A DNA stretch of 64,000 nucleotides from Escherichia coli (GCF_003991155.1 NZ_CP031295.1); one strand, 5' to 3'; positions 12,384 through 63,790 are shown, counted from the stretch's first letter. The notes: generated by a model not told the origin, from the sequence alone. Translations and numbers: made by a program.

Positions 12384-13067
12384 ATGTCCCGTTTTGTCCT
12401 TGGTAACTGCATCGATGTTATGACGCGTATCCCTGATAACGCCATTGATTTCATATTAACTGACCCGCCATATCTCGTCGGTTTTCGTGACCGTTCCGGG
12501 CGCACCATCGCCGGCGATAAAACCGATGAATGGCTGCAACCGGCCTGTAATGAAATGTACCGCGTACTCAAAAAAGACGCGCTGATGGTGAGCTTCTACG
12601 GCTGGAACCGCGTCGATCGCTTTATGGCCGCCTGGAAAAATGCGGGATTCAGCGTTGTTGGTCACCTGGTCTTCACCAAAAACTACACATCGAAGGCCGC
12701 ATATGTGGGCTATCGCCACGAATGCGCCTACATCCTGGCAAAAGGCCGTCCACGTCTGCCACAAAACCCGCTGCCGGACGTGCTGGGCTGGAAATATTCT
12801 GGCAATCGTCATCACCCGACGGAAAAGCCCGTTACCAGCCTGCAACCGCTGATTGAGAGCTTCACACACCCGAACGCAATTGTGCTGGACCCGTTTGCAG
12901 GCAGCGGCTCAACCTGCGTCGCCGCCCTCCAGTCCGGACGCCGGTATATCGGTATCGAGCTGCTTGAGCAGTATCACCGTGCCGGGCAGCAACGCCTTGC
13001 CGCCGTGCAACGGGCCATGCAGCAGGGGGCCGCGAATGATGACTGGTTTATGCCGGAGGCTGCGTAA
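12384..13067 (+). CDS. orphan DNA methyltransferase, beta-class (motif IV before motif I)
   Basis: DPPY motif (ILTDPPYLVGF) near the N-terminus and SAM-binding FAGSGST near the C-terminus; no adjacent restriction gene. Confidence 0.85.
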   Translation: MSRFVLGNCIDVMTRIPDNAIDFILTDPPYLVGFRDRSGRTIAGDKTDEWLQPACNEMYRVLKKDALMVSFYGWNRVDRFMAAWKNAGFSVVGHLVFTKNYTSKAAYVGYRHECAYILAKGRPRLPQNPLPDVLGWKYSGNRHHPTEKPVTSLQPLIESFTHPNAIVLDPFAGSGSTCVAALQSGRRYIGIELLEQYHRAGQQRLAAVQRAMQQGAANDDWFMPEAA

Positions 13068-16224: not shown

Positions 16225-16870
16225 TGTTCCTGATGTTGTTGTTCCTTTATCTGCTGCTCTGATTCTGACTACTGCAGTGTTGTTCTGTCTGCCGGGCGCA
16301 CCTTCGGCTCCCGGCTGCCTGGCGGCATCCGGTCGTCAGGCCCGACTCCGACAGGCAGCTGCTGGCGCACCCGCCAGTCTCCGCCGAACCCGCTGGCGCG
16401 GTTTCGGGCTGTCGCTACGGTCCGATGCGTGAAAACCCCGGGCTTGCAGCGACCGTTCCGGTCGCGCCACCCTTGTCGCGCCGTGGCCTGCGCTCCCGGC
16501 ATCCCGGCAAAAGGCCGCCGGGATGTAAGGGGCAACGCCGTTTCGCGCACGCGCTCTCCGTCGTTGCGGCGGGTCCCTGCTCATTGCCTGCCGGTGCCAC
16601 ACACCCGTATGAGTCCCTGTCGCCGGGGGCTGATACAGCCACAACCTGCCGCACTGACTGTCCAGGGTAAATGAACAGCCCACAAAATTTTTTACCCAAA
16701 ACCCGGTAAAAAATTTTGCGTTCTGCCCAGGACAGGTGCGTCAGGCCGTGGCAGTGATGCCCCTTGCGGCGAAGGTTCTCAAACGGGTGAAGTTCATACC
16801 ACAGGGAATACAGCAGCAGGTTCCCGCGAAACGTCAAAACCGCGGCTCCCGAAACTCAACGGGTGATGTT
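16225..16870 (+). repeat. GC-rich structured repeat, copy 1 (Frpo/ssi-like single-strand promoter candidate)
   Basis: About 650 bp near-identical to 19510-20185 and 24965-25608; internal palindrome AAAATTTTTTACC...GGTAAAAAATTTT at 16684-16718. Confidence 0.7.
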
Positions 16871-17097
16871 CTTTAAAAATCAGGATTTATTTCAGACTCC
16901 GGCAATACGCATTTATGTGTTCTGTCAGTCATCCGGCTGGCAGGTAATGAGAACGCAGGAACAGAAGGAGGAAAACACCGGAGAACGTCAGACGCAGATA
17001 TGAAAAAAGCAGGTCAGGGACCTGCTTAATCCACACCGCAGAGACTGCACGAACAGTCTTTACGGTTTCATTAATTAACGTCATAAGAGGCTAAATT

Positions 17098-17328
17098 ATG
17101 ACAGTAAGTATTGTTTCACCTTCCGCAGCGGCTGTAAAGCCCCGCCGTCATCCCCGTTTCAGACGCGAAGACATCCCCGCGCCGGAAATTGACCCCGTGC
17201 TGAAAGCCTTCGGGCGACACATTGCCCGGAGTTTTCACCGGGGGCGTGGTGTACACATCCCCGCCATGAAAAACACGGCCTTCGGGCAGGTGCTCCGCAC
17301 ACTCGAACTGAAACGCGCTTTTAACTGA
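17098..17328 (+). CDS. small basic hypothetical protein (76 aa)
   Basis: First ORF downstream of repeat copy 1; AGAGG RBS. Confidence 0.5.
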   Translation: MTVSIVSPSAAAVKPRRHPRFRREDIPAPEIDPVLKAFGRHIARSFHRGRGVHIPAMKNTAFGQVLRTLELKRAFN

Positions 17329-19509: not shown

Positions 19510-20185
19510 GTTACTGATGTTGTTGTTCCTGCTACTGTTCTTCTTTTTCCTGCTGCTCTGATTCTGACTACTGCAGTGTTGTCCTGTCTGCCGGGCGCAC
19601 CTTCGGCTCCCGGCTGCCTGGCGGCATCCGGTCGTCAGGCCCGACTCCGACAGGCAGCTGCTGGCGCACCTGCCAGTCTCCGCCGAACCCGCTGGCGCGG
19701 TTTCGGGCTGTCGCTACGGTCCGATGCGTGAAAACCCCTGGCTTGCAGCGACCGTTCCGGTCGCGCCGCCTCTGTCGCGCCGTGGCCTGCGCTCCTGGCA
19801 TCCCGGCAAAAGACCGCCGGGATGTAAGGGGCAACGCCGTTTCGCAAACCGCGCTTCACGTCGTTGCGGCGGGTCCCTGCCCGTTGTTCTGTCCGGTGCC
19901 ATTCACCTGTTTAAGCCCCTGTCGCCGGGGGCAAAGACAGCCACAACCGTCTCCGCCAGTCCAGGGGTGAAATGTACATCCCGCAAAACTTTTTGCCCAA
20001 AAGCAGGCAAAAACTTTTGCGGGATGTACATTTCACCCCCGGACAGTCGTTTCCGTCCGTGGCAGTGATGCCCCTTGCGGCGAAGGTTCTCAAAAAGGTG
20101 ATGGTGAATACCGGAGGGAACAAAAGGCAGGTCCCCGCAAAACGTCAAAACCGCGGCTCCCGAAACTCAAAAGATGATGGGGGCT
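19510..20185 (+). repeat. GC-rich structured repeat, copy 2 (Frpo/ssi-like), upstream of ssb
   Basis: Near-identical to copies 1 and 3; long hairpin 19962-20041 (GGGGTGAAATGTACATCCCGCAAAACTTTTTGCC ... GGCAAAAACTTTTGCGGGATGTACATTTCACCCC) with a single central mismatch. Confidence 0.7.
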
Positions 20186-20212
20186 GAAAACATCAACAGA
20201 AGGAGGCACATC

Positions 20213-23119: not shown

Positions 23120-23554
23120 ATGAAAACTGAACTGACCCTGAATGTATTACAGACCATGAGCGCACAGGAATATGAAGATATCCGGGCAGCCGGAAGTGAT
23201 GAACGTCGTGAGCTGACACACGCCGTGATGCGGGAACTGGATGCGCCGGACAACTGGACGATGAACGGCGAGTACGGCAGCGAGTTTGGCGGATTTTTCC
23301 CCGTCCAGGTCCGTTTCACGCCTGCCCACGAACGTTTCCACCTGGCGTTATGTTCACCGGGCGATGTCTCTCAGGTCTGGGTGCTGGTTCTGGTGAATGC
23401 CGGTGGTGAGCCGTTTGCGGTGGTTCAGGTACAGCGGCGGTTTGCACCGGAAGCCGTCAGCCATTCACTGGCACTGGCGGCGTCACTGGACGCGCAGGGG
23501 TACAGCGTCAGTGACATCATCCATATCCTGATGGCGGAAGGAGGTCAGGCATGA
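23120..23554 (+). CDS. psiB: plasmid SOS inhibition protein PsiB
   Basis: [46 protein letters not shown]... matches F PsiB as recalled. Confidence 0.9.
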
Positions 23555-24270
23555 GCGCACGTTCACAGGCACTGGTTCCTCTCAGCACAGAGCAACAGGC
23601 CGCATGGCGGGCGGTGGCGGAGACCGAAAAACGCCGCCATCAGGGTAACACGCTGGCTGAATATCCGTATGCGGGGGCGTTTTTCCGCTGTCTGAACGGA
23701 AGCCGCAGGATATCGCTGTCTGACCTGCGATTTTTCATGCCGTCCCTGACCGCAGAAGAACTGCACGGCAACCGTCTTCAGTGGCTGTATGCCATCGATG
23801 TGCTGATTGAAACACAGGGCGAGGTCTGCCTCCTTCCCCTTCCCGGTGATGCAGCAGAGCGCTTGTTCCCGTCGGTGCGGTTTCGTGTCAGGGAACGCAG
23901 TCGCCATAAATCCGCGCTGGTCATGCAGAAGTACAGCCGCCAGCAGGCGAGGGAGGCAGAGCAGAAAGCCCGTGCGTACCAGGCGCTGGTCGCTCAGGCT
24001 GAAATCGAACTGGCATTCCATTCGCCGGAAACAGTCGGAAGCTGGCATGCACGCTGGAGTGACCGGGTGGCAGAGCATGACCTGGAAACCCTGTTCTGGC
24101 AGTGGGGCGAGCGTTTTCCGTCACTGGCCGGAATGGAACGCTGGCAGTGGCAGGATATGCCATTCTGGCAGGTCATCGCAGAGGCTGGTATGGCGGCAAG
24201 GGTGGTCGGTCATGCTGTTCGTGAGATGGAGCGGTGGATGGTGCCGAACAAACTCCGGGAGGCAGCGTGA
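23551..24270 (+). CDS. psiA: PsiA
   Basis: Translationally coupled to psiB; 239 aa matching F PsiA as recalled. Confidence 0.9.
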
Positions 24271-24491
24271 TGCGGCAACAATCACACGGATTTCCCGTGA
24301 ACGGTCTGAATGAGCGGATTATTTTCAGGGAAAGTGAGTGTGGTCAGCGTGCAGGTATATGGGCTATGATGTGCCCGGCGCTTGAGGCTTTCTGCCTCAT
24401 GACGTGAAGGTGGTTTGTTGCCGTGTTGTGTGGCAGAAAGAAGATAGCCCCGTAGTAAGTTAATTTTCATTAACCACCACGAGGCATCCCT

Positions 24492-24704
24492 ATGTCTAGT
24501 CCACATCAGGATAGCCTCTTACCGCGCTTTGCGCAAGGAGAAGAAGGCCATGAAACTACCACGAAGTTCCCTTGTCTGGTGTGTGTTGATCGTGTGTCTC
24601 ACACTGTTGATATTCACTTATCTGACACGAAAATCGCTGTGCGAGATTCGTTACAGAGACGGACACAGGGAGGTGGCGGCTTTCATGGCTTACGAATCCG
24701 GTAA
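24492..24704 (+). CDS. mok: mok-like overlapping leader ORF of the hok locus (flmC-like)
   Basis: ORF overlapping hok in another frame, as in hok/sok-type loci. Confidence 0.45.
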
Positions 24705-24708
24705 GTAG
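24550..24708 (+). CDS. hok: Hok-family membrane toxin (F FlmA-like, 52 aa)
   Basis: [52 protein letters not shown] read directly from 24550. Confidence 0.85.
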
Positions 24709-24964
24709 CAACCTGGAGGCGGGCGCAGGCCCGCCTTTTCAGGACTGATGCTGGTCTGACTACTGAAGCGCCTTTATAAAGGGGCTGCTGGTTCGCCGGT
24801 AGCCCCTTTCTCCTTGCTGATGTTGTACGGGCATGAACAACCTGACTTCAGGAAGGTCGTTTCCCTTCAGGAACGGGGATGAACGCGCGCCTGCGGCGCC
24901 CGTTCTTTTCCCCCGCCTTCTCTGGTTATGGCCTGTCAGAAATCACATCACCTTCCCTGTGATT

Positions 24965-25608
24965 ATTCTCTTTTTCTTCCTGCTCTGATTCTGACTACTG
25001 CAGTGTTGTCCTGTCTGCCGGGCGTACCTTCGGCTCCCGGCTGCCTGGCGGCATCCGGTCGTCAGGCCCGACTCCGACAGGCAGCTGCTGGCGCACCTGC
25101 CAGTCTCCGCCGAACCCGCTGGCGCGGTTTCGGGCTGTCGCTACGGTCCGATGCGTGAAAACCCCTGGCTTGCAGCGACCGTTCCGGTCGCGCCGCCTCT
25201 GTCGCGCCGTGACCTGCGCTCCCGGCATCCCGGCAAAAGGCGCCGGGATGTAAGGCGCAACGCCGTTTCGCAAACCGCGCTTCACGTCGTTGCGGCGGGT
25301 CCCTGCCCGTTGTTGTGTCCGGTGCCATTCACCAGTTTAAGCCCCTGTCGCCGGGGGCATAGACAGCCACAACCGTCTCCGCCAGTCCAGGGGTGAAATG
25401 CACATCCCGCAAAACTTTTTGCCCAGAAGCAGGCAAAAACTTTTGCGGTCTGCCCCCGGACAGTCGTTTCCGGCCGTGGCAGTGATGCCCCATGCGGCGA
25501 AGGTTCTCAAACAGGTGATGGTGAATACCGGAGGGAACAAAAGGCAGGTCCCCGCAAAACGTCAAAACCGCGGCTCCCGAAACTCAACAGATGATGGGGG
25601 CTGAAAAC
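24965..25608 (+). repeat. GC-rich structured repeat, copy 3 (Frpo/ssi-like)
   Basis: Near-identical to copy 2; palindrome GCAAAACTTTTTGCC...GGCAAAAACTTTTGC at 25407-25448. Confidence 0.7.
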
Positions 25609-47019: not shown

Positions 47020-49838
47020 ATGAAGTTTATGTGATTGCCGGTGGTGAGTGGTTGCGGAATAACCTGAACGCCATTGCCGCCTTTATGGGAACCAGGACGT
47101 GGGATTCCATTGAAAAAATTGCGCTCACATTGTCTGTTCTCGCGGTGGCCGTAATGTGGGTACAGCGGCACAACGTGATGGATTTGCTGGGCTGGGTGGC
47201 CGTATTTGTGCTTATCAGCCTGCTGGTTAATGTCCGCACATCGGTGCAGATTATTGATAACAGTGACCTGGTCAAAGTTCACCGGGTGGATAATGTGCCG
47301 GTCGGACTGGCGATGCCACTTTCACTGACGACCCGTATCGGGCATGCAATGGTGGCCAGTTACGAGATGATCTTCACGCAACCGGACAGTGTCACCTACA
47401 GCAAAACGGGGATGCTGTTTGGCGCAGAACTGGTATCAAAAAGCACCGACTTTTTGTCCCGCAATCCGGAAATCGCCAATCTTTTCCAGGATTATGTGCA
47501 GAACTGTGTTATGGGGGATATTTACCTGAACCACAAATACACGCTGGAGGAGCTGATGGCCTCCGCTGATCCCTACACGCTGATTTTTTCCCGCCCCAGC
47601 CCGCTGCGGGGCGTTTATGACAGCAATAATAATTTCGTAACCTGTAAGGACGCGTCGGTTTCGCTGAAAGACAAGCTGAATCTGGACACACAGAGTGGCG
47701 GAAAAACCTGGCATTATTATGCCCAGCAGCTATTTGGTGGACGCCCTGATCCTAACCTGCTGTTCAGTACGCTGATTGGCGACAGTTACAGTTACTTCTA
47801 TGGCTCAAGTAAATCAGCCAGCCAGATCATCCGCCAGAATGTCACCATCAATGCGCTGAAGGAGGGGATCACCAGTTATGCCGCACGTAATGGTGATTCG
47901 GCCAGCCTGGTGAATCTGGCCACCACGTCATCGATGGAGAAACAACGTCTGGCACATGTCTCCATCGGTCATGTGGCGATGCGGACACTGCCCATGACGC
48001 AGACCATCCTGACGGGGATCGCCATCGGTATTTTCCCGCTCCTGGTACTGGCGGCTGTATTCAACAAACTGACGCTGTCTGTCCTGAAAGGTTATGTGTT
48101 TGCCCTGATGTGGCTGCAGTCATGGCCACTCTTGTACGCCATTCTGAACAGTGCCATGACATTTTATGCGAAACAGAATGGTGCGCCGGTGGTGCTCTCT
48201 GAAATTTCACAGATACAACTGAAATACTCCGATCTGGCTTCCACTGCCGGGTATCTTTCCATGATGATCCCGCCATTATCCTGGATGATGGTCAGGGGGC
48301 TTGGGGCCGGATTTTCCAGTGTGTACAGCCATTTCGCTTCCTCTGCTATCAGCCCGACTGCCAGTGCGGCAGGTAGTGTGGTTGACGGTAATTACTCCTA
48401 CGGCAACATGCAGACGGAAAACGTGAACGGCTTCAGCTGGAGCACCAACAGCACCACGTCGTTTGGTCAGATGATGTACCAGACCGGCAGTGGCGCAACC
48501 GCCACACAGACCCGTGACGGTAATATGGTGATGGATGCAAGCGGAGCGATGTCCCGTTTACCGGTCGGTATCAATGCAACGCGTCAGATTGCAGTGGCAC
48601 AACAGGAAATGGCCCGGGAGGCGTCGAACAGAGCAGAAAGTGCCCTGCATGGTTTCAGCAGCAGTATTGCCAGTGCCTGGAACACGCTCAGTCAGTTTGG
48701 TTCTAACCGGGGGAGCAGTGACTCTGTCACCAGTGGTGCTGACAGTACGATGAGTGCACAGGACTCCATGATGGCCAGCCGTATGCGCAGTGCAGTGGAA
48801 AGCTATGCGAAGGCGCATAATATCAGTAATGAGCAGGCGACTCAGGAACTGGCATCCAGAAGTACGAGAGCTTCTGCCGGGATGTATGGAGATGCTCATG
48901 CTGAATGGGGGGTTAAACCTAAAATTCTTGGTGTTGGTGGAGGATTAGGCGTTAGAGGTGGTGGTCGGGCTGGCATTGACTGGAGTGATGATGATGCGCA
49001 TCAGGCCAGCAGTGGTTCACGGGCCAGCTATGATGCTCGTCATGATATTGACGCTAAAGCCAGTAAGGACTTTAAAGAGGCCAGCGATTACTTTACCAGT
49101 CGCAAAGTCAGTGAATCCGGCAGCCATACTGACAATAATGCTGATTCCCGGGTGGATCAACTGTCTGCAGCCCTGAATTCAGCGAAACAGAGTTACGACC
49201 AGTACACGACGAATATGACCCGCAGCCATGAATATGCTGAAATGGCATCCCGTACTGAAAGCATGAGTGGGCAGATGAGCGAAGATTTGTCGCAACAGTT
49301 TGCACAGTATGTGATGAAACACGCACCGCAGGATGCCGAAGCTATTCTGACAAATACCAGTTCGCCGGAGATTGCAGAACGCCGTCGGGCAATGGCCTGG
49401 TCTTTTGTGCAGGAACAGATACAGCCTGGTGTTGATAATGCCTGGCGGGAATCCCGTGGCGATATTGGTAAAGGAATGGAGAGCGTACCTTCGGGTGGAG
49501 GCAGTCAGGATATTATTGCTGACCATCAGGGACATCAGGCCATTATTGAGCAAAGAACGCAGGACAGTAATATCCGTAATGATGTAAAACATCAGGTTGA
49601 TAATATGGTCACAGAATATAAAGGGAATATAGGTGATACTCAGAACAGCATACGTGGCGAGGAAAATATTGTAAGAGGACAGTATTCTGAACTGCAGAAT
49701 CACCATAAAACAGAGGCATTATCTCAGAATAATAAATATAATGAAGAAAAGTCGGCTCAGGAAAGAATGCCCGGGGCTGACAGTCCACAGGAACTGATGA
49801 AAAGGGCAAAGGAGTATCAGGATAAGTATAAGCAATAA
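47016..49838 (+). CDS. traG: TraG (mating-pair stabilisation / entry exclusion partner)
   Basis: 940 aa; F order. Confidence 0.95.
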   Translation: MNEVYVIAGGEWLRNNLNAIAAFMGTRTWDSIEKIALTLSVLAVAVMWVQRHNVMDLLGWVAVFVLISLLVNVRTSVQIIDNSDLVKVHRVDNVPVGLAMPLSLTTRIGHAMVASYEMIFTQPDSVTYSKTGMLFGAELVSKSTDFLSRNPEIANLFQDYVQNCVMGDIYLNHKYTLEELMASADPYTLIFSRPSPLRGVYDSNNNFVTCKDASVSLKDKLNLDTQSGGKTWHYYAQQLFGGRPDPNLLFSTLIGDSYSYFYGSSKSASQIIRQNVTINALKEGITSYAARNGDSASLVNLATTSSMEKQRLAHVSIGHVAMRTLPMTQTILTGIAIGIFPLLVLAAVFNKLTLSVLKGYVFALMWLQSWPLLYAILNSAMTFYAKQNGAPVVLSEISQIQLKYSDLASTAGYLSMMIPPLSWMMVRGLGAGFSSVYSHFASSAISPTASAAGSVVDGNYSYGNMQTENVNGFSWSTNSTTSFGQMMYQTGSGATATQTRDGNMVMDASGAMSRLPVGINATRQIAVAQQEMAREASNRAESALHGFSSSIASAWNTLSQFGSNRGSSDSVTSGADSTMSAQDSMMASRMRSAVESYAKAHNISNEQATQELASRSTRASAGMYGDAHAEWGVKPKILGVGGGLGVRGGGRAGIDWSDDDAHQASSGSRASYDARHDIDAKASKDFKEASDYFTSRKVSESGSHTDNNADSRVDQLSAALNSAKQSYDQYTTNMTRSHEYAEMASRTESMSGQMSEDLSQQFAQYVMKHAPQDAEAILTNTSSPEIAERRRAMAWSFVQEQIQPGVDNAWRESRGDIGKGMESVPSGGGSQDIIADHQGHQAIIEQRTQDSNIRNDVKHQVDNMVTEYKGNIGDTQNSIRGEENIVRGQYSELQNHHKTEALSQNNKYNEEKSAQERMPGADSPQELMKRAKEYQDKYKQ

Positions 49839-53515: not shown

Positions 53516-53914
53516 TCAGCTCCAGTCTTCAATTCTCAGACCGTCCACACGTTCAAATTCCCGGGTGTTATTAGTCACAATAATCAGTCCCCGACTGCGG
53601 GCATGACCTGCGATCATTTGATCAAATGGCCCGACAGGGCGTCCCTGACGGGCAAGTTCTGCTCTTATCTGGCCGCTGTGTGTGGCTGCGGCAGCGTCGT
53701 AATCCAGAACATCAATGCGGGAAACAAATCCCTCGATCACAGCGAGATTACGTTCAGGCATCTGGCTTTTTTCTGCACCATATATCAGCTCCATCAGGGT
53801 GACCGAACTGATACACATTCTCCCCTGGTTCAGGTTAAAACGCTCCCTGACGCTGGCGGGTTTGTTCTTTATCGTGAAAATGCAGATGTTGGTATCGAGC
53901 ATAAACTTCAGCAT
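53516..53914 (-). CDS. vapC: VapC PIN-domain toxin
   Basis: MLKFMLDTNICIF PIN N-terminus; 132 aa. Confidence 0.85.
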   Translation of the reverse strand: MLKFMLDTNICIFTIKNKPASVRERFNLNQGRMCISSVTLMELIYGAEKSQMPERNLAVIEGFVSRIDVLDYDAAAATHSGQIRAELARQGRPVGPFDQMIAGHARSRGLIIVTNNTREFERVDGLRIEDWS

Positions 53915-54141
53915 CAGAATGACTCCCTTTCCTGCATGCCGGGCTGTTCCCTGTTATCCATAAAATCGGCGCTGACGTTGTGTCCGTCGAACCATTCGTC
54001 CCATGTCTCTCCGGCTGGCGTAATGATTCTGGTTCGTCCGACAGCAATCACTTCAACGCGTTTTACGTTTTCCGGCAATGCAACCGCTTTTGGCAGTCTG
54101 ACCGCCTGGCTGCGGTTGCTGAAAAATACGGTGGTTTCCAT
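53914..54141 (-). CDS. vapB: VapB antitoxin
   Basis: 75-aa ORF immediately upstream of, and coupled to, vapC. Confidence 0.8.
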   Translation of the reverse strand: METTVFFSNRSQAVRLPKAVALPENVKRVEVIAVGRTRIITPAGETWDEWFDGHNVSADFMDNREQPGMQERESF

Positions 54142-54222: not shown

Positions 54223-57200
54223 ATGATGAGTATCGCGCAGGTCAGATCGGCCGGAAGTGCCGGTAACTATTATACCGACAAGGATAATTACTATGTGCTG
54301 GGCAGCATGGGAGAACGCTGGGCCGGCAGGGGGGCTGAACAGCTGGGGCTGCAGGGCAGCGTCGATAAGGATGTTTTTACCCGTCTTCTGGAGGGGAAGC
54401 TGCCGGACGGAGCGGATTTAAGCCGCATGCAGGATGGCAGTAATAAGCATCGTCCCGGCTACGACCTGACCTTCTCCGCCCCCAAAAGTGTCTCCGTGAT
54501 GGCCATGTTAGGCGGTGATAAACGTCTTATTGATGCACATAACCAGGCCGTGGATTTTGCTGTCCGTCAGGTGGAGGCGCTGGCTTCCACACGGGTTATG
54601 ACGGACGGACAGTCAGAAACGGTGCTGACCGGTAATCTGGTGATGGCACTGTTTAACCACGACACCAGTCGCGATCAGGAACCACAGTTACACACACATG
54701 CGGTAGTGGCCAATGTCACGCAGCATAACGGCGAGTGGAAGACATTGAGCAGTGACAAAGTGGGGAAAACGGGGTTCATTGAGAATGTGTACGCTAATCA
54801 GATTGCCTTCGGCAGGCTCTACCGGGAAAAACTGAAAGAGCAGGTTGAGGCGCTAGGCTATGAAACGGAAGTGGTTGGTAAGCACGGTATGTGGGAGATG
54901 CCGGGCGTACCGGTGGAGGCCTTCTCCGGACGCTCACAGGCTATCCGGGAGGCCGTCGGGGAAGACGCCTCGCTGAAATCCCGGGATGTGGCGGCACTGG
55001 ATACGCGAAAATCCAAACAGCACGTCGATCCTGAAGTCAGAATGGCTGAATGGATGCAGACGCTGAAGGAAACCGGGTTCGACATCCGGGCGTATCGTGA
55101 CGCGGCGGACCAACGGGCGGAGACCCGCACGCAGACGCCCGGACCCGCTTCACAGGACGGGCCGGATGTGCAGCAGGCGGTGACACAGGCCATTGCCGGA
55201 TTAAGTGAACGCAAAGTGCAGTTTACGTACACGGACGTGCTGGCCAGAACGGTCGGCATACTGCCGCCGGAAAATGGTGTGATTGAACGGGCACGCGCCG
55301 GTATCGATGAGGCCATCAGCCGTGAGCAGCTTATCCCCCTCGATCGTGAGAAGGGGCTGTTCACGTCCGGGATTCATGTGCTCGATGAGCTGTCAGTCCG
55401 GGCACTCAGTCGTGACATCATGAAACAGAACCGGGTGACCGTACATCCGGAGAAAAGTGTCCCCCGGACGGCCGGTTACAGCGATGCGGTCAGTGTTCTG
55501 GCACAGGATCGCCCGTCGCTGGCTATTGTGTCCGGGCAGGGCGGTGCAGCCGGGCAGCGTGAGCGGGTGGCGGAGCTGGTCATGATGGCCCGGGAGCAGG
55601 GGCGGGAGGTGCAGATTATCGCCGCTGACCGTCGCTCGCAGATGAACCTGAAGCAGGATGAACGGCTGTCCGGTGAGCTGATAACCGGACGTCGTCAGCT
55701 GCAGGAGGGCATGGCCTTCACGCCGGGCAATACTGTTATCGTTGACCAGGGCGAAAAACTCTCCCTGAAAGAGACGTTAACCCTGCTGGACGGTGCCGCA
55801 CGTCATAACGTACAGGTCCTGATAACCGACAGCGGGCAGCGAACCGGTACAGGCAGTGCACTGATGGCCATGAAAGATGCCGGGGTGAACACATATCGCT
55901 GGCAGGGGGGAGAACAGCGGCCGGCCACCATCATCAGTGAACCGGACCGTAATGTCCGCTATGCCCGGCTGGCAGGAGATTTTGCTGCCAGCGTGAAAGC
56001 CGGAGAAGAGAGCGTGGCACAGGTCAGCGGGGTACGGGAACAGGCCATACTGACACAGGCCATTCGCAGTGAGCTGAAAACACAGGGCGTGCTCGGACGC
56101 CCGGAGGTAACCATGACCGCCCTGTCGCCGGTCTGGCTGGACAGCCGGAGCCGTTATCTGCGGGATATGTACCGTCCGGGGATGGTGATGGAGCAGTGGA
56201 ACCCGGAGACACGCAGTCATGACCGCTATGTTATCGACCGGGTGACGGCGCAGAGTAACAGCCTGACCCTGCGGGATGCGCAGGATGAAACGCAGGTGGT
56301 GCGTATTTCCTCCCTGGACAGCAGCTGGTCGCTGTTCCGGCCGGAAAAAATGCCGGTGGCAGACGGCGAGCGACTGAGGGTGACAGGGAAAATTCCCGGA
56401 CTCCGCGTCTCCGGCGGTGACCGCCTGCAGGTGGCATCCGTCAGTGAAGATGCGATGACGGTTGTTGTGCCGGGGCGGGCTGAACCGGCCTCCCTGCCTG
56501 TGAGCGATTCACCATTCATGGCACTGAAGCTGGAGAACGGCTGGGTGGAAACGCCCGGGCATTCCGTCAGCGACAGTGCGAAGGTTTTTGCCTCCGTCAC
56601 ACAGATGGCAATGGACAACGCCACCCTGAACGGTCTGGCCCGCAGCGGTCGTGATGTCCGGCTGTATTCCTCACTGGATGAAACCCGTACTGCGGAAAAA
56701 CTTGCCCGCCATCCCTCCTTTACGGTGGTTTCTGAGCAGATAAAGGCGCGTGCCGGTGAGACATTGCTGGAAACCGCTATCAGTCTGCAGAAAACCGGGC
56801 TTCACACGCCGGCACAGCAGGCTATTCATCTGGCGCTTCCTGTGGTGGAAAGTAAAAACCTGGCCTTCAGCATGGTGGACCTGCTGACAGAGGCGAAGTC
56901 GTTTGCTGCAGAAGGAACCAGTTTTACTGAACTGGGAGGGGAAATCAATGCGCAGATAAAACGCGGTGATTTACTGTATGTGGATGTGGCAAAAGGCTAT
57001 GGCACAGGCCTGCTGGTTTCCCGTGCGTCGTATGAGGCAGAAAAGAGCATTCTTCGCCATATTCTCGAAGGTAAGGAGGCGGTCACGCCACTGATGGAGA
57101 GAGTACCTGGCGAACTCATGGAGAAACTGACATCAGGACAGCGTGCCGCTACCCGCATGATACTGGAAACGTCCGACCGTTTCACGGTGGTGCAGGGCTA

Positions 57201-61976: not shown

Positions 61977-62189
61977 ATGAATGGATTCAGAAACAGTTCA
62001 CGGAACGGTCAGGTCTGGCGTTACCAGCGTGCCGGCGGGCGGGCCGTTATTCTGGAGGTCAGTGGACGCTGGATGGAAGCGGCAGAAGCATGGCGACGGG
62101 CTGCCTGCATAGCTCCCCGGACAGACTGGCAACAGTTTGCCCGGAAAAGGGCTGAACACTGCCACCGGCGCTGCCGGGGAAGGGTGTAA
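61977..62189 (+). CDS. small basic hypothetical protein (70 aa)
   Basis: ORF with AGGGAGG RBS; Arg/Trp-rich; uncertain. Confidence 0.35.
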   Translation: MNGFRNSSRNGQVWRYQRAGGRAVILEVSGRWMEAAEAWRRAACIAPRTDWQQFARKRAEHCHRRCRGRV

Positions 62190-62869
62190 CGAAAAAAGCA
62201 GCCTTCATTACTCCAGGAGTCAGAAGGCTGAAAGGAGTTTATGAGATTTGCTTTTTTTAATATCCGGTCGGGCAGTATGACCGGCCAGTTCTGAGTAGCA
62301 CAGAGTTTTTTCCGTATTAAGTCGCGATTTTATATTTTGTGATTAATTTCACAAAATAAGGTCTTATTCAATGTGTGCTGCGATATTCAGGGGGGCTGAA
62401 ATACAGGTGCCATTTATCTGATATGGAGAATAACATGAGGAAATATATTCCACTGGTATTATTTATCTTTTCATGGCCGGTATTGTCTGCAGATGTTCAC
62501 GGGCAGATTTATGCACCAGACAGAATGAATGTTAATTAGTTTATGAATACAACAGGGGCTGATCAGCAATCACCGGAACATCGTAGCTGACGCGTTCGCA
62601 ATGCTCAGTTGTCCCCCCCGGAAACGGGAAAAAGTAAGTTTTCCCCCGCTCCCGGCGTTTTTGTAACAAAAACAGGCAAATGGGGGTAATAGTCAGCAAC
62701 AGGGAATGTGGTATTATCGCGGCGGGTGTTTGAGCCTTTCTGGTTCAGGCAAGACGCAGGTACCAGAAATGCGAAGACCCCACTCGTTAATCCATTAACT
62801 CGTGAGGTCTGCATGAAGTACCTTAACACTACTGATTGTAGCCTCTTCTTTGCTGAGAGGTCAAAGTTT

Positions 62870-63019
62870 ATGACGAAATATGCCCTTATCGGGTTGCTCG
62901 CCGTGTGCGCCACGGTGTTGTGTTTTTCACTGATATTCAGGGAACGGTTATGTGAGCTGAATATTCACAGAGGAAATACAGTGGTGCAGGTAACTCTGGC
63001 CTACGAAGCACGGAAGTAA
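62870..63019 (+). CDS. srnB: Hok/Gef-family toxin (SrnB/PndA-like, 49 aa) with in-frame upstream extension from 62813
   Basis: MTKYALIGLLAVCATVLCFSLIFRERLCELNIHRGNTVVQVTLAYEARK resembles the Hok toxin at 24550. Confidence 0.75.
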   Translation: MTKYALIGLLAVCATVLCFSLIFRERLCELNIHRGNTVVQVTLAYEARK

Positions 63020-63302
63020 GCTGCCGGGCGGGGACGGAAGTCCCCGCTTTCCGGAAGTGTGAGGTATTTCAGGGGCAGACACCCTATATACCAGAAACAG
63101 CCGGTCCCGCCCGGGGCCGGCACCCTGGCTAAGGCATTTCCAGCTTTTCAGTCATTTCATTATCAAAATCACATTAAACGGTCGTAATCAGACATGATTT
63201 GTGCGCCAACACAGATCATCGTCACAACTTTCAAGTCGCTGATTTCAAAAAACTGTAGTATTCTCTGCGAAACGATCCCTGTTTGAGAATTGAGGAGGCG
63301 AG

Positions 63303-63560: not shown

Positions 63561-63689
63561 ATATTCACATTCTTGCTTATCTCAGGAGTGAGTGGTAGAT
63601 TGCTGATCGTTTAAGGAATTTTGTGGCTGGCCACGCCGTAAGGTGGCAGGGAACTGGTTCTGATGTGGATTTACAGGAGCCAGAAAAGC

Positions 63690-63790
63690 GAAAACCCCGA
63701 TAATCTTCTTCAAGTTTGGCGACTAGAAAGATTACCGGGGCCCCATAAAACCGCATAGCCAACAATTCAGCTATGCGGGGAGTATAGTTA
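63690..63790 (-). ncRNA. copA: putative CopA antisense RNA / CopT target region
   Basis: Long imperfect hairpins (CCCCGATAATCTT...AAGATTACCGGGG and CCGCATAGC...GCTATGCGG) between copB and the leader peptide; boundaries approximate. Confidence 0.35.

Follow-up and report, generated by a model that had tools for sequence, protein, structure and literature searches.

Two genes for small toxins of the Hok family lie in a 64,000-nucleotide stretch of Escherichia coli DNA (GCF_003991155.1, NZ_CP031295.1), which we refer to as the window and in which positions are counted from the first letter. The first toxin gene, hok, occupies 24550..24708 on the plus strand and encodes 52 amino acids. The second, srnB, occupies 62870..63019 on the same strand and encodes 49 amino acids (MTKYALIGLLAVCATVLCFSLIFRERLCELNIHRGNTVVQVTLAYEARK). 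The classical F plasmid and many IncF plasmids are collinear with the window, and plasmid pCREC-544_1 is 100% identical to it at both loci. The annotated gene order of pCREC-544_1 runs from sopAB, ssb, psiB and a Hok-family toxin through traM to traI, traX and finO, and then to a Hok/Gef family protein, repA2, tap and repA1. F and pCREC-544_1 each carry both loci, separated by about 39 kb that include the tra operon; in F the Hok-family toxin is annotated at 63009-63134 and the Hok/Gef protein at 2926-3075, beside repA. In the window, hok directly follows psiB-psiA (the ORF at 23551-24270 we take to be PsiA) and precedes traM by about 3.5 kb, and srnB is located between finO and repA2/CopA/repA1, directly upstream of the IncFII-type replication control genes. 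Rfam places the traJ 5' UTR/FinP at about 28.5 kb and CopA at 63686-63774. An earlier note on this DNA had described a replicon with two toxin loci of the Hok family, a FlmA/Hok-like one in the leading region and an SrnB/PndA-like one near the replication region. All of its coordinates and sequences are present in the window, and the psiB-psiA/traM and finO/repA2 neighbours show that both location statements are right. No third Hok-family gene was found in a tblastn comparison of Hok, SrnB and PndA with the six frames of the whole window, the next best match having an E value of at least 0.05.

The Hok protein encoded in the window scores 76.5 bits against Pfam HOK_GEF (PF01848; cut-off 22) and 126.4 bits against the NCBIfam model 'Hok family toxin' (cut-off 73), and is identical to the Swiss-Prot entry 'Protein Hok' (RepID=HOK_ECOLX). 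The hok ATG sits inside a longer ORF at 24529..24708. The mok leader ORF (24492..24704, plus strand, 70 aa) has its start 58 nt upstream of the hok ATG and is read in another frame than hok, as had been claimed for this FlmA/Hok-like toxin. Its product matches NCBIfam NF010277, an equivalog for 'modulator of post-segregation killing protein', with 151.6 bits (cut-off 110) and Pfam DUF5431 with 140 bits; it is the protein named 'Protein FlmC homolog' (FLMC2_ECOLX). Automatic annotation presents the locus differently. The NCBI pipeline calls the leading-region Hok of F and pCREC-544_1 as a 126-bp (41-aa) ORF from an internal GTG that corresponds to window position 24583, whereas the experimentally established Hok has 52 aa from the ATG at 24550. 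The RefSeq records of the two plasmids annotate no mok, sok or srnC features.

The ends of the hok transcripts were set with the R1 hok/sok reagents of Faridani et al. (2006; PMC1635323), all of which match the window without a mismatch. Primer hok F (24377-24395) sets the mRNA 5' end at 24377, and primer hok R (24724-24737) sets the processed 3' end at 24737, giving a processed, translatable mRNA of 361 nt. The R1 hok ORF probe matches exactly at 24654-24708, within the hok coding sequence. The full-length mok-hok mRNA spans 24377..24776 (plus strand), its 3' end following from the published statement that the 'terminal 39 nt' are removed (PMC1635323). A promoter-like site, TGGTCA-18-TATGAT (24341..24370, plus strand; 9/12 in the consensus scan), ends 7 nt short of the 5' end published for the hok mRNA of R1. 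Numbered from +1 at 24377, the mok ATG lies at nt 116-118 and the hok ATG at nt 174-176, in agreement with the R1 positions T117, G118 and G176 mutated by Le Rhun et al. (2022; PMC9841398). The processed mRNA ends in a predicted 3' stem-loop (24716..24737, plus strand) that corresponds to the 'road-block' to exonucleolytic trimming of PMC1635323. The tac element GGCGCUU at the mRNA 5' end (24377..24383, plus strand) pairs with AAGCGCC at 24766..24772 (plus strand), the fbi or 3' fold-back inhibitory sequence, in the MFE fold of the full-length RNA; the tac/fbi mechanism has been described (PMC9841398).

The Sok antisense RNA was delimited in the same way. Primer sok R (24481-24501, minus strand) sets its 5' end at 24501 and primer sok F (24438-24459) its 3' end at 24438, so that Sok runs over 24438..24501 on the minus strand and has the published length of 64 nt. 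In its predicted fold a single-stranded 5' tail of 11 nt precedes a long hairpin, with a U-rich tail at the other end, and Sok covers the SD sequence and start codon of mok. The target of anti-Sok PNA-1 (24491-24501) is exactly the 11-nt single-stranded tail. The putative sok promoter, TTGCGC-17-TATCCT (24508..24536), was read from the minus strand 6-7 nt upstream of the published Sok 5' end; with 7/12 consensus positions it falls below what the scanner flagged.

Locus 1 agrees with R1 hok/mok/sok (parB) in all the features compared: the 52-aa Hok is identical, Mok has 70 aa and Sok 64 nt, and the mRNA 5' end and processed 3' end are the same. No difference in functional elements was seen between the two, the comparison being made through published oligonucleotides and proteins. 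The flm locus of F (flmA/flmB/flmC) likewise follows psiA in the leading region, has the same layout and is 93.3% identical to locus 1. FlmA of F carries Y39, whereas the window Hok carries H39 as does R1 Hok. Moreover, 20 of the 35 differences between locus 1 and flm fall in the 65-nt Sok/target segment at 24438-24502 (about 12870-12930 in F). H39 together with this clustering identifies the window locus as R1-type rather than F-type in its antisense specificity, and the clustering is consistent with a divergence of antisense specificity between otherwise near-identical loci.

At the second locus, the translated srnB product is identical to that of F srnB and corresponds to RefSeq WP_001312851.1 in both F and pCREC-544_1. 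It scores 37.3 bits against HOK_GEF, above the cut-off, and 32.9 bits against NCBIfam 'Hok family toxin', below the cut-off of that subfamily (73). An ATG at 62813 lies 57 nt (19 codons) upstream of the srnB ATG, in frame and with no stop between them, which bears out the in-frame upstream extension attributed to this SrnB/PndA-like toxin. The resulting 68-aa ORF, reportedly named srnB' by the Gerdes group, spans 62813-63019; its leader segment MKYLNTTDCSLFFAERSKF (62813..62869, plus strand) is the counterpart of mok. The 68-aa ORF is already in public databases, in a cluster that includes Swiss-Prot SRNB_ECOLI, from which the window differs by F13 in place of L13. The in-frame extension has thus long been known and is no peculiarity of the window.

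The srnB mRNA is predicted to span 62724..63085 (plus strand), with its 5' end placed from the promoter and the Rfam match and its 3' end from the end-pairing. The consensus scan found its promoter, TAGTCA-16-TATTAT with an extended -10 TG, at 62690..62717 (plus strand). The first nucleotides of the mRNA, GGGUGUUUG (62724..62732, plus strand), are equivalent to tac and pair in the MFE fold with the fbi-equivalent CAGACACCC (63076..63084, plus strand). Shortly after the srnB stop codon, a G+C-rich 3' stem-loop (63026..63049, plus strand) is the likely counterpart of the hok road-block hairpin, a function assigned by analogy. On the minus strand, the strong promoter TTGACC-18-TACAAT (62835..62864; 10/12 in the consensus scan) would drive SrnC, an antisense RNA of about 67 nt whose predicted ends (62762..62829, minus strand) follow from the promoter position and the fold. 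SrnC is predicted to have the layout of Sok: about 14 nt of single-stranded 5' tail come before a hairpin, and a U-rich tail follows. The leader SD sequence (GAGG, 62805-62808) and the leader ATG at 62813 are both covered by SrnC; the srnB ATG lies outside it. An 'endogenous constitutive PsrnC promoter' has been reported for the F locus, where SrnB kills E. coli, and does so with a delay when SrnC is expressed from its own constitutive promoter (PMC12390103). The text of that report does not state whether the 49-aa or the 68-aa form of SrnB was cloned.

Locus 2 resembles F srnB/srnC in its place between finO and repA2, in the 49-aa toxin, in the in-frame 68-aa ORF and in the srnC promoter, and its DNA is 97.1% identical over 456 nt. 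The two differ at residue 13 of the leader (L13 in F, F13 in the window) and in the 5' element, in which F has a C at the position of window 62730 and thus nine Watson-Crick pairs, whereas the window has a U and hence a U-G wobble. The sequence upstream of about 62695 differs as well, including the -35 of the mRNA promoter. The pndA/pndB/pndC loci of IncI and IncB/K/Z plasmids (R483, R64) are more distant, with toxins 45-50% identical to SrnB, and share the locus design and the motif at the 5' end; their 67-aa leader ORF is out of frame like mok and unlike that of srnB. In a sub-lineage of IncF and Klebsiella plasmids, the srnB copies have the promoter and the first ~50 nt of the mRNA replaced, and the toxin of the copy in NZ_CP063516.1 (584-835 of the fetched segment) ends early (…VTLA). 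The srnB copies of this sub-lineage are probably decayed loci.

The two window loci share one design. In both, an antisense RNA with a promoter of its own, a hairpin and a U-tail covers the start region of the leader ORF, and the 5' end of the mRNA pairs with its 3' end in the MFE folds (24377-83 with 24766-72; 62724-32 with 63076-84). Both leaders match Rfam RF01794 over model positions 1-157, the full length of the model, with scores of 88.9 bits (24376-24552) and 90.2 bits (62724-62882) against a gathering score of 59. These matches lie on the plus strand, that of the mRNA; the model therefore represents the leader that holds the Sok target and not literally the antisense RNA, and the Rfam 'sok' matches were rejected as locations of the antisense genes. 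The end-pairing was followed into related loci, namely the pnd loci of R64 and of an IncK2/Z plasmid and srnB-like loci of Morganella, Providencia and Photobacterium. In these loci the predicted mRNA begins with 7-10 nt whose complement lies about 360-395 nt downstream, and the two segments co-vary. The 5' and 3' elements are GGCGCUU and AAGCGCC in both hok and flm, GGGUGCUUGA and UCAAGCACCC in the Morganella locus, and GGGUGCUCU and AGAGCACCC in the Photobacterium locus; compensatory changes are seen across seven loci, among them hok, flm, srnB and those of Morganella, Providencia and Photobacterium. When the duplex energy of the 5' end with the 3' UTR was compared with that for shuffled 3' UTRs, neither locus reached significance (hok, p ~0.06; srnB, p ~0.15), so the end-pairing rests on the whole-mRNA fold and on the covariation across loci.

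Post-segregational killing, with activation after transcription arrest, has been documented for R1 hok/sok, F srnB and R483 pnd (literature cited in PMC4147584), and proteins identical to both window toxins have been reported toxic: R1 Hok (PMC9841398) and F SrnB (PMC12390103). Transcription, processing, coupling and killing at the window loci are predicted from what has been published for R1, F and R483, and would follow one path at both. The stable toxin mRNA would at first be closed by pairing between its 5' and 3' ends, and slow trimming from the 3' end would open it. Ribosomes could then bind the opened mRNA at the start of the leader ORF, and translation of the leader would let the toxin be made; alternatively, the short-lived Sok or SrnC would bind the opened mRNA over the leader start region. 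Plasmid-free cells would lose the unstable antisense RNA first and so be killed by the membrane toxin. The elements that such a path calls for were sought at each locus and found at both: antisense promoters (sok 7/12, srnC 10/12) and fold-back structures with paired ends in the MFE folds. Neither locus lacks an antisense gene or carries a toxin of an inactive type, given the exact matches of the Sok primers, the srnC promoter with its hairpin and U-tail, and toxins identical to proteins toxic in experiments.

The similarity in design does not extend to recent common descent or to shared specificity. Recent duplication was considered as the origin of the two loci and rejected; blastn of one locus against the other gave no significant DNA similarity, and the toxins are 39% identical. 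The predicted antisense/leader duplexes have energies of about -126 and -134 kcal/mol for the cognate pairs and of -34 and -40 kcal/mol for the non-cognate pairs. The antisense RNAs are thus not complementary to each other's targets, and the two loci are parallel and independent. The modules should not protect each other's targets and should be parallel rather than interchangeable. The earlier description of the pair as redundant is imprecise, since the antisense RNAs lack cross-complementarity.

The contrast between the in-frame leader of srnB and the out-of-frame leader of hok is real, and reduces to a single nucleotide in the spacing, with leader starts at -57 relative to srnB and at -58 relative to hok. 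Among the relatives compared, hok, flm and both pnd loci have leaders that start at -58, are out of frame, encode 67-70 aa and span nearly the whole toxin gene. The IncF srnB loci (the window, F and one variant) have in-frame leaders starting at -57, with ORFs of 68 aa in the window and F and of 63 aa in the variant. In Photobacterium the leader starts at -53, is out of frame and encodes 24 aa. The Morganella and Providencia srnB-like loci (about 550-850 of the fetched segments; toxins 71% and 66% identical to SrnB, respectively) have no ATG leader at the expected place and keep the 5'/3' complementarity; Morganella has ATT where F has the leader ATG. Within this small sample of relatives, an in-frame leader is found only in the IncF srnB lineage. 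Ribosomes that started at 62813 would make a 68-aa, N-terminally extended SrnB instead of an unrelated Mok-like peptide.

The note had proposed that the different leaders may reflect different regulation. A mechanistic version of this idea is that the 68-aa protein from 62813 is the real or main toxin, so that SrnC would block toxin initiation directly and not by way of coupling, and srnB would be regulated unlike hok. We consider this unlikely. The leader ATG does follow a GAGG SD sequence at a distance of 4 nt and lies in the stretch that SrnC covers, a ribosome starting there must read through the whole toxin, databases list the 68-aa form as SrnB, and the in-frame state is retained in F, in the window and in one IncF variant. 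Against this, the 49-aa unit has an SD sequence of its own, GAGAGG, 9 nt before the ATG at 62870, and it is the only unit conserved in relatives: in the Morganella and Providencia genes the toxin frame is closed by a stop 4-11 codons upstream, and the pnd and hok leaders are out of frame. In the IncF variant NZ_CP063516.1 the leader varies more (about 6 of 19 residues) than the toxin (2 of 44). Saturation mutagenesis of R1 hok/sok bears on the same point. Toxicity is abolished by stop codons in mok only if these precede the hok start; translation of mok needs to reach no further than the region where hok starts, and the Mok product itself is not required (PMC9841398). An in-frame leader would satisfy this need for translation up to the toxin start equally well, and a different regulation is therefore not indicated. 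With a common regulatory design, a spacing difference of one nucleotide and the R1 mutagenesis, the proposal of different regulation finds no support, and the control logic of srnB is most likely unchanged by the in-frame leader. There is a small chance that the in-frame leader, confined to IncF srnB among the sampled loci, lets one mRNA yield both 68-aa and 49-aa toxin isoforms, with the antisense RNA directly blocking initiation of the long one; if so, killing kinetics or potency could differ from those of mok-coupled loci.

It is very improbable that the plasmid has a single working Hok-family module and that the other locus has decayed into a non-functional remnant: decayed srnB loci do exist in other IncF plasmids such as NZ_CP063516.1, with promoter and 5' end replaced and the toxin shortened, and the window srnB has one change from F in its 5' element, but that change still pairs as U-G, both toxin ORFs are full-length and identical to proteins known to be toxic, the mRNA promoters, antisense promoters, hairpins and end-pairings are intact at both loci, and each locus is 100% identical in many independent plasmids.

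We are thus highly confident in reading the window as the backbone of an F-like (IncFII/FIC-type) conjugative plasmid with two separate, intact type I toxin-antitoxin (post-segregational killing) modules of the Hok family, an R1-type hok/mok/sok and an F-type srnB/srnC, whose leader difference is most likely without effect on control logic.

The same plasmid backbone holds further elements around the two modules. A direct repeat of about 640 bp occurs in three copies in the leading region (16225-16868, 19524-20191 and 24969-25608), with a mutual identity of 86-96%; the third copy begins about 195 nt past the 3' end of the hok mRNA. The copy at 19524-20191 contains an imperfect inverted repeat, 19869-20138 being self-complementary at 72%, and this segment has an inverted match of 68% in the copy at 24969-25608. 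In F the ~640-bp repeat occurs twice, once before ssb and once after flm. The repeats look like single-strand-promoter (Frpo/ssi-type) repeats of F-like leading regions. A third toxin-antitoxin system in the window, of type II, lies between traD and traI on the minus strand (53516-54141). It consists of vapC (53516-53914, minus strand), which encodes a 132-aa PIN-domain protein, and vapB (53914-54141, minus strand; 75 aa), and vapBC is annotated at the same place in F and pCREC-544_1. Four antisense RNAs first described on pHK01 score above the Rfam gathering score, all on the minus strand: AS-pc02 (62086-62271; 181.9 bits), which lies between finO and srnB, AS-pc01 (17004-17103), AS-traI (57072-57148) and AS-traG (47735-47820).

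Both modules are widespread. Locus 1 matches at least 5000 PLSDB plasmid records, with 1443 at 99% identity or more among the matches listed, and locus 2 matches 2909; NZ_CP024827.1 and NZ_CP024140.1 are among the top matches for both. F is known to carry flm and srnB-srnC (PMC4147584). In a comparative study of F33:A-:B- IncF plasmids, the part of the table that is shown has srnBC in 15 of 15 plasmids and hok-sok in 14 of 15, and 'pemKI, hok-sok, srnBC' is the set of addiction systems listed for nearly all of the plasmids (PMC6052338). The pair of hok/sok and srnB/srnC on an F-like plasmid is already known and is an ordinary, textbook arrangement. A recent survey of Hok diversity explicitly left out leader ORFs (bioRxiv 10.1101/2025.08.07.668861), and no family-wide map of leader frames was found in the papers searched; such a map across the Hok family is the remaining point of some value. 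The main use of the present analysis is in annotation, in that it gives coordinates for Sok, SrnC, mok and the mRNA ends, features that automatic pipelines leave out or call wrongly. A Hok-family pair together with type II systems such as VapBC is standard equipment of IncF plasmids, and such systems help explain why IncF resistance and virulence plasmids are hard to lose.
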